Virus record (IMG/VR): IMGVR_UViG_2660238462_000004
DNA length: 21,318 nt
Origin: a virus
Taxonomy: Duplodnaviria > Heunggongvirae > Uroviricota > Caudoviricetes
Strand: one strand, 5' to 3'
Shown: piece by piece, positions 2,142-6,709 of the stretch
Numbering within the stretch: position 1 is the first letter of the stretch
Layout: each line of letters opens with the position of its first letter
The notes under the pieces: generated by a model
The model's input: the letters and a program-made list of their open reading frames with translations, nothing else
The model's database searches: none
What the model was told of the DNA's origin: nothing
Translations under genes and position numbers: made by a program

Positions 2142-3224
2142 TTAGAACTGGTAAACCATACCTACAGCAACGATATCATCGGTAGCAACGCCAGATGCTT
2201 TCGTGAAATCGCTCTTATCAATCAGGTTGATTTTGTAATCAACAAAAGTGGACATATTTTTGTTGAAGTAATAGGTTGCACCTACATCAATATATTCAAC
2301 CAAGTCCTGATCACCCCACGCACCCAAGTCTTTTCCTTTAGATTGCAGGTAAGCAACGGACGGACGCAGACCGAAGTCGAACTGATATTGTGCAACTACT
2401 TCGAAGTTTTGTGCTTTGTTGGCAATATGGTTATTACCAAAAACAGTCATGTTCTGGGTTTCAGAATAGGTGGTAGCCAGATAGATGTTGTTCGCATCAT
2501 ATTTCAGACCAGCTGCCCATACTTCAGCATTTTGACCAGATGCATTCAGGCTGTTGTTACCGTAGATAACCTGATTATTAGTGCGGTCAGATTTAGCATA
2601 GGTTGCACCTACACCGAATCCTTCATACTCATAAGTAGTGGAGAAACCGAAACCATCACCATTAGCTTCAGTTACGTCAGTGCGGTCATTTTTACCCTGA
2701 TACTGAGCAGCAAAGTTCAGACCATCAACCAGACCAAAGAAGTCATTGTTACGATAAGTTGCAACACCTGTGGTGCGACCAGTCATGAATACATCTGTTT
2801 GGGTCCAGGTATCGCCACCGAATTCTGGCAGAACGTCGGTCCATGCACCAATATCGTATGCTACACCGTAGTTACGGCCATAATCGATGGAGCCGTAGTC
2901 ACCGAATTTCAGGCCAGCGAAGGCAAGACGGGTTTTATCTTTGGAGGAACCTTGAGATTCAGCGCGGTTGCCTTTGAATTCATATTCCCACTGACCGAAA
3001 CCAGTCAGTTGATCGTTGATTTGGGTTTCACCTTTGAAGCCAAGACGGGCATAAGTAGTATCACCATCATCTGCATCATTAGAGGAGAAGTAGTGCTTAG
3101 CATTAACTTTCCCGTACAGATCCAGCTTGTTACTGTCTTTATTATAAATTTCAGCTGCCTGAGCAGACATCGCCATCAGTACTGATGCAGCTACAGCAGA
3201 AATTGCCACTGTTAATTTTTTCAT
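2142..3224 (-). CDS. nmpC: Outer-membrane general porin, OmpC/OmpF family (NmpC/OmpD-like prophage porin)
   Basis: 360 aa from ATG at 3222-3224: signal peptide [23 protein letters not shown], then [23 protein letters not shown]..., C-terminal ...VAVGMVYQF (terminal Phe typical of beta-barrel OMPs). The six-frame ORF extends 20 codons further upstream but the signal peptide fixes the start. Confidence 0.9.
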
Positions 3225-3592
3225 CGTGAGCCCTTTTTTTGAACTATTATTAAAAAATGATGTCACTGCGCGATAAATATTCATCTAATCAATGTGATTA
3301 TTTCAAGATGTAAGTTTTGGTTTCTCATTTGATTTGTGAAGTAGATCTCTATTTTTATCTGAACTTTTTCTATCGAATCCTATTCATGGCTCTTGGCTGA
3401 ATAAAAATAAATCTATTAGCCAATTTATATTAATGGCTGTTATTTATAAGTGCTCTATAATTTGAAGATTCAATTTAAACCAGCTAAAAATAACGCTGGA
3501 AATTATTTGTTGGTTATTTGTTGAGATTTGCTTATGTATTTGTAGTGGTGTTTTCAATACTCGGTAGCATTCTCGCAAATATCATTTAGTGG

Positions 3593-3811: not shown

Positions 3812-4027
3812 ATGAAATCCATGGATAAGTTAACAACGGGTGTCGCCTATGGCACCTCAGCAGGTAGTGCCGGGTACTGGTTTTTACAGTTGCTCGATAA
3901 AGTCACGCCCTCACAGTGGGCGGCAATAGGTGTGCTGGGTAGTCTGGTGTTTGGCCTGCTGACGTATCTGACAAATCTTTATTTCAAGATTAAAGAAGAC
4001 AAGCGTAAGGCTGCACGGGGAGAGTAA
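3812..4027 (+). CDS. essD: Class II holin (phage 21 S21-type pinholin) with dual-start motif
   Basis: 71 aa [71 protein letters not shown]; two predicted TM segments; Met1 and Met4 give the antiholin/holin dual start; SD gaggtgggg at 3801-3809. The track ORF begins at an upstream TTG (3767) that I discount. Confidence 0.85.
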
Positions 4028-4031
4028 TTCA

Positions 4032-4553
4032 ATGACTCAAAACTATGAACTGATTGTGAAAGGGATCCGCAATTTTGAGAATAAAGTTACGGTAACTTTA
4101 GCGTTACGGGACAAAAACCGCTTTGACGGTGAAATTTTTGACCTGGACATCTCGCTGGACCGTGTTGAAGGTGCCGCGCTGGAGTTTTATGAGGCAGCAG
4201 CCAGAAGGAGCATCAGACAGGTCTTCCTGGATGTTGCTGCCGGGTTATGTGAAGGGGATGAGCAGTCGCCGGAAAAGCGCCCCATAATTTTAGAGGCGCA
4301 GAATGTGTGGATAACCTACAAAGGAAAGCTACCGGGAAGAATTACTGGTTCTCTGAAGACGCCACCGACGGCATTGCGGTCAGAAAAAGATGATATTGAA
4401 TCGCCCATTGAAAAACTGGAGGGCAGCGTCGCTGATCTGAATAAAAAATTGTCGGTGCTGATTCCTTCTGAAGATGAAAAAAAACGCCGCGATGAGCAGT
4501 TTGCGGCGTTTTACGATTATTGCATTGAAGTTACTCTCGCAGGAATTTTGTGA
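4032..4553 (+). CDS. Hypothetical protein, N-terminal part YdfR/DUF1327-like, with a C-terminal extension
   Basis: ATG 4 nt after the holin stop; MTQNYELIVKGIRNFENKVTVTLALRDKNRFDGEIFDLDISLDRVEGAALEFYEAAARRSIRQVFL... resembles my recollection of prophage YdfR (about 100 aa), which sits between holin and endolysin in Qin. Here the frame runs to 173 aa with a Lys/Glu-rich tail. Confidence 0.5.
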   Translation: MTQNYELIVKGIRNFENKVTVTLALRDKNRFDGEIFDLDISLDRVEGAALEFYEAAARRSIRQVFLDVAAGLCEGDEQSPEKRPIILEAQNVWITYKGKLPGRITGSLKTPPTALRSEKDDIESPIEKLEGSVADLNKKLSVLIPSEDEKKRRDEQFAAFYDYCIEVTLAGIL

Positions 4554-4793
4554 AGATTTTTGAGGAGGGTAAATCTCTTCAGTAAGCTTAATGGCGGACG
4601 CTGCAATTAATTCAGGAAGGTCCGCAAGGTCATCTGTCAGTGGATATGATGAAAAATCGGCGGCAGTTCTGTTAAGAAGCGCTTTAACTAATTCCTTTTC
4701 CTTCTCCGGCAACAAGTTGATTAGAGCTACGACTGCTTGCCTGAGTGCGATTAAATCAGCAAAAGTTTGTTTAGGTAGATTTGTGTAATCCAT
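4380..4793 (-). CDS. Hypothetical small protein; N-terminal 75 aa look coding, the distal part overlaps antisense to 4032-4553 and may be a shadow or remnant
   Basis: ATG at 4791-4793 with SD gagg 6 nt upstream (minus strand). MDYTNLPKQTFADLIALRQAVVALINLLPEKEKELVKALLNRTAADFSSYPLTDDLADLPELIAASAIKLTEEIYPPQKS... is helical and acidic. No stop until 4380; the last ~58 codons are Phe/Ile-rich, as expected for antisense of a Lys/Glu-rich coding region. Confidence 0.3.
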   Translation of the reverse strand: MDYTNLPKQTFADLIALRQAVVALINLLPEKEKELVKALLNRTAADFSSYPLTDDLADLPELIAASAIKLTEEIYPPQKSSQNSCESNFNAIIVKRRKLLIAAFFFIFRRNQHRQFFIQISDAALQFFNGRFNIIFF

Positions 4794-4906
4794 AGTCGCC
4801 TCTGTGTTTATCAGATTGACATCCTCCTCCCGCCAGTGCCCATCACTGGTGAGGTAAGATTTAACATATCCGGGGATTTGAAGCCGATAAATCCTGATAA
4901 ATATCC

Positions 4907-5934
<1,028 letters not shown>

Positions 5935-6117: not shown

Positions 6118-6146
6118 TTGCTATGGTTGGTTAATCATGCGTTAAT
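6118..6146 (+). promoter_or_regulatory. Candidate cspA-like promoter driving a long 5' UTR
   Basis: ttgcta (6118-6123), 17-nt spacer, gttaat (6141-6146), in an AT-rich upstream region; predicted leader ~145 nt to the csp ATG, comparable to the cspA leader. Confidence 0.35.
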
Positions 6147-6297
6147 GGTGTTCTGGTTTGTTACAAAATTATCTGAAGCAGTCATTGTTATAATTTTATT
6201 ATTTGTACCTCTTGAGATTTCCTTGTTGGTTTTTCTCTCTGATATTTTTTTTCGGACCATTCTGCCCAAGGGCTAACTTCTTCAAAAGGTAATAATG

Positions 6298-6510
6298 ATG
6301 TCTAACAAAATGACTGGTTTAGTGAAATGGTTTAACCCTGAAAAAGGTTTTGGTTTCATCACGCCGAAAGATGGTAGCAAAGATGTGTTTGTCCATTTCT
6401 CAGCTATTCAGAGCAACGATTTCAAAACGTTAACTGAGAATCAGGAAGTCGAATTTGGTATTGAGAACGGACCTAAAGGCCCCGCGGCTGTTCATGTTGT
6501 GGCACTTTGA
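6298..6510 (+). CDS. cspI: Cold-shock protein, CspA family (CspI-like)
   Basis: 70 aa [70 protein letters not shown] with RNP1/RNP2-like motifs (KGFGFI, VFVHF); SD aagg 8 nt upstream. Confidence 0.9.
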
Positions 6511-6709
6511 GGTAGAAAATATTACAAACCATATTCACTTTAGATGCCCGTGTTGCCATGGTTCTCAGTATAGAACATCATCTTTTGATGTTTCTGACAG
6601 GAATCCTTTCGGGGCAAAATGTATCTTTTGTAAATCAATGATGATTACATTTGATAATATTTCACAATACTTAAATGTTAGCCGTCTATCGTTAGATTTA
6701 AGAAAGTGA
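6494..6709 (+). CDS. Small zinc-ribbon protein (YnfQ/YmcF-like) downstream of csp; start codon uncertain
   Basis: Frame encodes ...[57 protein letters not shown] with CxCC...CxxC. The first ATG (6494) lacks an SD and overlaps csp; a GAGG (6509-6512) lies 8 nt upstream of an in-frame ATT (6521), which would give a 62-aa product. Confidence 0.5.

Follow-up and report, generated by a model that had tools for sequence, protein, structure and literature searches.

How do two opposed genes in a prophage lysis region come to share 174 nucleotides (nt) of coding sequence? The question is raised by a 21,318-nt stretch of a Caudoviricetes genome (IMG/VR record IMGVR_UViG_2660238462_000004; the whole stretch is hereafter called the window), which is the late region of a lambdoid Escherichia coli prophage. 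Between its holin (S) and endolysin (R) genes lie a plus-strand open reading frame (ORF) of 173 amino acids (aa) at 4032..4553 and a minus-strand ORF of 137 aa at 4380..4793; the 174 nt of 4380..4553 are common to both, as described in an earlier reading made from the letters alone (the sequence-only reading). That reading offered three origins for the overlap: a genuine long antisense overlap, a recombination scar, or a fusion that extended the plus gene. Our analysis leads to a different answer, which we hold to be very probable: the window carries a mutated copy of a conserved two-gene cassette found in the lysis region of lambdoid E. coli prophages, and a duplication of the dinucleotide CT within the cassette made the 174-nt overlap.

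To locate the change, the window was aligned with E. coli HS and with the phages PhiR63_1, 2H10 and PhiR5_1. The window reads GTTACTCTCGCAGG against GTTACTCGCAGG in all relatives, and at about 4534-4537 it has ACTCTCGC where the relatives have ACTCGC, so that the CTCT at 4534..4537 is a lineage-specific 2-bp duplication of a single CT. The closest matches among complete E. coli genomes and cultured phages reached only about 97-98% identity and were off by 2 nt in length. Because the CT insertion lies inside a pre-existing overlap of 53 nt, both frames are shifted at once. In the plus gene, the final 15 residues are replaced by LAGIL, and the end that reads CIEVTRRNFVKIFEEGKSLQ in relatives becomes CIEVTLAGIL, which shortens the product from 183 to 173 aa. 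In the minus gene, the TAA stop is put out of frame and translation would run through 51 further codons antisense to the Lys/Glu-rich tail of the plus gene, lengthening the product from 86 to 137 aa. This read-through extension (4380..4535, minus strand) is non-conserved and occurs only in the insertion lineage; it is Phe-rich and basic, being the antisense of a Lys/Glu-rich tail, and raises the isoelectric point (pI) of the small protein from 4.6 to 8.8. Judged from these alignments, the 174-nt overlap is a mutational by-product of the CT duplication and not an ancestral arrangement. The sequence-only reading had itself raised the case of homologues whose minus ORF ends in a stop that is lost here, and this is essentially what we found. 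None of its three origins was the cause. A mosaic boundary with prophages of another type, described below, does exist near 4523, but it is not private to this lineage, and it is not the source of the 174 nt because the tested copies of the window's own form align colinearly with the window across it. The junction that had been proposed at 4554-4568 lies some 20-30 nt from the true site.

The intact arrangement is preserved in close relatives. E. coli HS and the phages PhiR63_1 and 2H10 have a plus ORF of 183 aa and a minus ORF of 86 aa ending in QNSCE, with a 53-nt overlap; PhiR5_1 has a plus ORF of 211 aa with an identical C-terminus and the same 86-aa minus ORF, and the 183/86-aa arrangement with its 53-nt overlap is also present in prophages of putatively enterohaemorrhagic E. 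coli. In window coordinates, this ancestral convergent coding overlap occupies 4531..4585 (53 nt when the 2 inserted bases are subtracted), the plus stop TAA corresponding to 4583-4585 and the minus stop TAA to the complement of the TTA at 4531-4533. The overlap has the fewest variable sites of the interval, with 5 variant alleles in 53 nt. An intact plus ORF of 183 or 176 aa is present in 41 of the 45 unique copies of the S-R interval and the 86-aa minus ORF is kept in 38 of them, and indels within the small gene are in frame (6 nt). Independent disruptions were also observed, comprising frameshifts in two copies, a nonsense mutation in a third and a change of the small-gene start from ATG to ACG in the lineage with a 176-aa plus product. 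Of the complete E. coli genomes, about 6% have the pair, and parts of the S-R interval were matched in 5110 of 5426.

The plus gene is a long form of ydfR, present in the window as a frameshifted allele. Its intact 183-aa form matches phrog_2091 (183 aa) from end to end, an entry that carries no function. The N-terminal 112 residues (4032..4367) match PF07041 (DUF1327) over positions 1-92 of the 93 in the profile with 142.8 bits against a cutoff of 25, which bears out the YdfR/DUF1327 likeness suggested before. The remainder up to the frameshift (4368..4533) is the Lys/Glu-rich extension that the sequence-only reading had pointed out. AlphaFold2 (AF2) predicted three strands and one helix for residues 1-73, with a predicted local distance difference test (pLDDT) score of 70-87, and a helical hairpin of low confidence for the tail. 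YdfR proteins of 103, 112-116, 176, 183, 211, 268 and 296 aa were found, all with the N-terminal domain in common; the tail is common to the 176-, 183-, 211- and 296-aa forms and is only partial, by truncation, in one 176-aa protein (P0097). Indels within the tail are in frame (a 21-nt deletion in the 176-aa form and an 84-nt insertion in the 211-aa form). Since the tail is shared across YdfR forms and its indels keep the frame, the extension is translated and is not the product of a local fusion. A search of long YdfR against PDB sequences returned nothing beyond chance-level matches to PARP-1 (E about 0.03).

A characterized relative is YdfR (b1555) of the K-12 prophage Qin, which matches the same family hidden Markov model (HMM) and occupies the same place on the late strand, right after a class II holin and before a lysozyme. 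In contrast to the window's protein, it has 103 aa and lacks both the helical tail and the convergent small gene. Its residues 1-72 bind the catalytic, N-terminal half of RNase E in bacterial adenylate cyclase two-hybrid (BACTH) and pull-down experiments, and the protein co-purifies RNA and is encoded in an operon that is silent in normal growth (PMC13232886). The N-terminal domain in the window is close in sequence to that of K-12 YdfR but is fused to a tail of about 70 aa that is elsewhere a separate gene; by analogy, the long form may likewise bind RNase E.

The minus gene encodes a small protein whose conserved core of 86 aa (4536..4793, minus strand) matches phrog_2572 (86 aa) end to end, residues 1-86 on profile positions 1-86 (E 1.2e-53), and is preceded by a Shine-Dalgarno GAGG at 4799..4802. 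The earlier impression of a good Shine-Dalgarno sequence and a convincing N-terminal part is thus confirmed. Members of phrog_2572, an entry that also carries no function, usually stop after about 86-93 codons with a 53-59-nt overlap; the window departs from this by frameshift, with 137 aa and 174 nt. The 86-aa protein is acidic (pI 4.6), and AF2 modelled it as three helices (residues 8-27, 30-48 and 56-74) followed by a disordered segment (75-86), with a mean pLDDT of 72. Because of these helix limits, the ancestral overlap would encode approximately the disordered tail together with the last part of helix 3. No match to the small protein was obtained in Pfam, NCBIfam, PADLOC or PDB sequences, and fold searches gave no functional lead. 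A word-based search with it returned close E. coli relatives only, and a one-genome-per-species scan returned one E. coli locus only.

More distant relatives were recovered by a profile search of 1.84 billion representative proteins, which identified two subfamilies of the small protein, P0175 and P0176 (E 9e-14 and 2.5e-11), at 41-49% identity; they in turn match phrog_2572 with E 3.5e-27 and 8.5e-40. Two larger proteins from the same search, of 975 and 1521 aa, are repeat proteins and were set aside as compositional or repeat artefacts. We call the window's form type 1 and the distant subfamilies types 2 and 3. In each of the 16 distant loci, the small gene (89-93 aa) is convergent with a late-strand partner, and the two share 59 nt at their 3' ends. 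Type 3 was found in 7 complete E. coli genomes, where the partner is a DUF1327 fusion of 174, 243 or 250 aa between S and R, with an N-terminal domain nearly identical to that in the window and a very different tail. Complete E. coli genomes gave no type-2 locus; type 2 was found in a Fels-1-like prophage (probably of Salmonella) that is 96% identical to Salmonella phage Fels-1 over the terminase, the portal and other parts; Fels-1 itself lacks the cassette. The type-2 partner is a free-standing gene of 73 aa, which begins where Rz stops and is followed by the terminase genes. The last 35 aa of its product align with the C-terminus of the 183-aa YdfR at 43% identity (BLASTP E 3e-5), and this alignment takes in about 19 residues upstream of the overlap. 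GAGG or TAAGGA stands at the equivalent Shine-Dalgarno position in all three types.

The cassette thus lies at different sites, either between S and R or after Rz. A third arrangement is seen in prophages with a 296-aa YdfR, in which the ydfR gene fills the whole S-R interval and there is no minus gene: in a blastn comparison with one of them, homology to the window extends from the holin as far as 4522 and sets in again at 4901, which delimits 4523..4900 as cassette-specific DNA. Wherever the small gene was observed, a tail partner overlapped it. The sequence-only reading had proposed a convergent pair at a prophage cargo site, and the pair is indeed genuine and behaves as a cassette that travels as a unit among the lysis regions of E. 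coli and Fels-1-like prophages. A literature search by DUF1327, accession numbers and PHROG identifiers found no paper on the linked overlapping pair. The convergent pair beneath the mutation is, on the strength of this sequence conservation, a real and conserved one that is still uncharacterised.

Two small genes that move jointly at known sites of phage cargo genes (morons), in three diverged forms, might be a toxin-antitoxin, abortive-infection or superinfection-exclusion module, and convergent type I toxin-antitoxin loci have a comparable 3' antisense overlap. We regard such a module as unlikely. The genes are convergent and form no operon, both products are unlike small hydrophobic toxins, prophages with a 296-aa YdfR have the tail but not the small gene, and several lineages tolerate inactivation of the pair. 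Type II systems are co-directional operons that combine a toxin fold with a DNA-binding antitoxin; here the genes converge, and DUF1327 is the only Pfam or NCBIfam match of either product. Type I systems combine a short hydrophobic toxin with a non-coding antisense RNA; here the products have at least 86 aa and are acidic or amphipathic. A simple hydropathy scan of the 86-, 183- and 73-aa proteins detected no clear transmembrane segment, the highest 19-residue hydropathy being 1.62, in a helix that holds Asp and Arg. PADLOC-DB gave no match for either product, and only PbeC, at chance level (E 0.018, 11 bits), for the 296-aa form. Nothing in these results supports a type I or type II toxin-antitoxin system, a catalogued defence system or a membrane-acting lysis regulator. 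No family match points to a lysis-timing or an exclusion role either.

In Bacillus subtilis, txpA/ratA and bsrG/SR4 are convergent, 3'-overlapping type I toxin-antitoxin loci. They share with the cassette the convergent units, the 3' ends complementary over tens of nt and the location in prophage DNA. The cassette differs in having two soluble-looking proteins (73-250 and 86-93 aa) and neither a short hydrophobic toxin nor a non-coding antitoxin RNA, and its overlap shows no significant RNA structure. When the overlap was folded on both strands in the three types, z-scores ranged from -1.7 to +0.7, with no bidirectional terminator or conserved hairpin, and an Rfam scan of the window gave nothing at the gene pair. 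The bor gene of phage lambda is a late-region moron transcribed against the late operon. Like bor, the small gene is an accessory gene in opposed orientation, in or by the lysis cassette, apparently with its own expression signals, and it is absent from relatives (Fels-1, K-12 Qin and the 296-aa type) in the manner of a moron. Unlike bor, it has no apparent signal peptide or lipobox and shows no sequence similarity to Bor, and it travels with a specific partner whose coding sequence its 3' end overlaps. A reverse-orientation late-region moron such as lambda bor may be called the nearest functional analogy.

What the intact cassette might do can be outlined from this arrangement. It consists of a late-strand gene for a helical tail, fused in frame to DUF1327/YdfR in type 1, and a convergent gene for an acidic three-helix protein of 86 aa. 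The small gene would be an accessory gene with transcription of its own, directed against the Q-dependent late operon. It would probably be active in the lysogen and be silenced by collision with late transcription and by 3' antisense pairing, and the tail-bearing partner would be made late, its DUF1327 domain contacting RNase E. The region upstream of the small gene offers a candidate for its expression signal. About 110 nt there are partly conserved in the three types, and within them a promoter-like element, TTATCG-N16-TATGTT (4863..4890, minus strand), keeps its hexamers and 16-nt spacing in types 1, 2 and 3 with a differing spacer, following the pattern TTATC(G/T)-N16-TAT(G/T)(T/G)T. We infer its role as a promoter from this conservation. 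An inverted repeat, CCAGTG-N5-CACTGG (4832-4849), is also present in the presumed 5' leader of the small gene, conserved in type 1 and not clearly so in types 2 and 3. We put forward expression in the lysogen with late silencing as a tentative regulatory reading. More speculatively still, the cassette could be a self-contained module that is moved by recombination between lysis-region sites and uses the 53-59-nt overlap as a regulatory device; its proteins might bind each other, the tail fused to DUF1327 might link the switch to RNase E in lytic growth, and the window would then be a natural double knockout. If functional, the pair would be a tractable case for convergent overlap coupling lysogenic and lytic expression.

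Several observations weigh against a conserved functional cassette. The pair is known here from its genes, the expression of either being a prediction. Among close relatives, the small gene has a modest excess of synonymous changes (11 of 28, against an expected fraction of 0.24). Antisense to the small gene, a 65-aa ORF (4591-4788, plus strand) that is open in all three types has an equal excess, so that these counts do not separate the frames; the excess is shared because the wobble positions of the two ORFs fall on the same base pairs. With 7 of 12 matches, the promoter-like element is weak and does not reach the threshold of the consensus scan. In none of the three types did that scan detect a convincing promoter ahead of the small gene, and no terminator was detected between the two genes. 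The small gene appears dispensable because the 176-aa YdfR sub-lineage (seven loci) has ACG in place of its ATG at the equivalent of window 4791-4793; gene callers extend the ORF in this lineage to an upstream ATG, giving 127 aa. The tail occurs without the small gene in the 296-aa YdfR forms, which indicates that the two are not obligate partners, and the type-3 tail has no BLASTP match to the type-1 tail, only a likeness at the level of pattern. A simpler reading of the overlap could also hold, in which it persists because the last 12 residues of the small protein, modelled as disordered, tolerate the demands of the partner's frame.

Taken to the extreme, some of these points would mean that the minus ORF is no gene but a shadow in a late-operon spacer that is long and untranslated, and that only the plus strand matters: a promoter of consensus type is lacking, the antisense 65-aa frame has an equal excess of synonymous changes, one sub-lineage has lost the start codon, and several phage annotations omit the minus gene. 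We find this very improbable. Strong HMM scores make the protein family recognizable at 41-49% identity, its genes have kept the position of the start and a Shine-Dalgarno sequence, lengths are consistent (86-93 aa), and AF2 gave a compact three-helix model. In the frame comparison, the minus-ORF frame was the only stop-free frame across the three types, the 65-aa antisense ORF being reported separately as open as well, and it had the top cross-type BLOSUM scores (158/142/222 against 126/79/175 for the next-best frame). The 65-aa ORF was itself treated as a shadow rather than a gene; its start is not conserved (ATG or TTG) and its cross-type scores are poorer. We therefore retain the conserved two-gene cassette as our reading of the locus and turn to the mutation itself.

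An error of sequencing or assembly would leave a true overlap of 53 nt in the window. The insertion is rare: a 73-nt probe across the site did not find it in 334 homologous places in 315 complete E. coli genomes. It was found in 14 other loci, namely 4 of 80 IMG/VR loci and 10 NCBI assemblies, and the identical 137-aa protein has the accession WP_159420128.1 and occurs on 22 contigs. Many carriers have accessions in a single block, GCA_0014129xx to GCA_0014137xx, and often the neighbouring genes of these carriers switch abruptly just beyond the ORF, as an assembly error might produce. However, the insertion is present in four isolate-derived IMG/VR contigs as well as in NCBI assemblies, and the duplication of a dinucleotide is atypical of homopolymer errors. 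In addition, it is always paired with a separate substitution 700 nt away: endolysin C118F (GPGKFFPS versus GPGKCFPS) is present in the window and in all 14 other carriers and in no non-carrier relative. This co-occurrence identifies the CT insertion as a real lineage marker, and we consider an error to be most unlikely. At least two changes in the lysis cassette are therefore private to the insertion lineage.

The same assemblies show a peculiarity of their own. In eight of the ten assemblies with the 137-aa ORF that were displayed, all from this accession block, the genes beyond the ORF are wholly different from one assembly to the next and include IS66, the psp operon, phosphotransferase system (PTS) genes and RusA/NinE, among others. 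The sequence appears broken inside or beside ydfR in these assemblies, and three of the IMG/VR loci with the allele are likewise cut there, which suggests scaffolding joins or rearrangements mediated by insertion sequences.

That the long overlap is genuine, with functional products of 173 and 137 aa and 174 nt under selection on both strands, is hardly credible: neither ORF is interrupted in the window, and at least 15 assemblies or loci retain the allele, but it is absent from all 334 places in the 315 complete genomes, homologues of the 51-aa extension are confined to the lineage and one frameshifted fragment, its Phe-rich composition is what plain antisense of a Lys/Glu-rich tail would give, and all other subfamilies stop at the homologous place. 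The frameshift probably inactivates both products, as far as the sequence tells, in the course of ordinary prophage decay; such decay fits because both products are altered, the endolysin is changed and independent disruptions occur elsewhere. The long dual-coding overlap seen here should not count as an overlapping gene. The convergent 3'-overlapping pair beneath it is of modest wider interest; the late-strand partner is frequently fused to a domain for which binding to RNase E has lately been reported.

Database annotation of the interval is in conflict, the altered 137-aa product having a RefSeq accession and the intact 183-aa gene being called a pseudogene by the Prokaryotic Genome Annotation Pipeline (PGAP). 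Pipelines differ for one and the same sequence: the intact 183-aa YdfR of E. coli HS (4241-4792 of its extracted locus, equivalent to 4032-4585 of the window) is a pseudogene in PGAP, labelled 'missing C-terminus' and given only 336 nt. Several phage records list the 183-aa ORF and omit the 86-aa gene.

The gene order around the pair is a porin gene on the minus strand, a class II holin gene, the ORF pair, a lysozyme gene, Rz, a cspA-type leader with a cold-shock gene, the terminase genes, and head and tail genes. The holin (3812..4027, plus strand, 71 aa) is of the S21 type (PF04971, Phage_holin_2_1, E 3.5e-35) and is annotated as essQ or class II holin in E. coli HS. The endolysin (4907..5440, plus strand) is a lysozyme of family PF00959, and we read its hydrophobic N-terminal segment as a putative signal-anchor-release (SAR) anchor. 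It is followed by an Rz-type spanin with a DUF2514 domain (5437..5934, plus strand; PF10721, E 1.9e-38). The sequence-only reading had held that a holin is normally followed directly by its endolysin; an intervening gene is in fact common at this place, as in essQ-ydfR-rrrQ of K-12 Qin. Upstream of the holin and in opposed orientation, the window has an OmpC/NmpC-like porin gene (2142..3284, minus strand, 380 aa), a prophage-borne porin cargo, and copies of the gene pair also occur in prophages of E. coli genomes of enterohaemorrhagic size, with a gene for a NanS-type esterase upstream of the holin. Just 3' of Rz lies a cspA thermoregulator (109.8 bits), the only Rfam match in the window, with a CspI-like cold-shock gene (6140-6556, plus strand). 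Cold stress has been reported to induce the ydfR cluster of Qin (PMC13232886).
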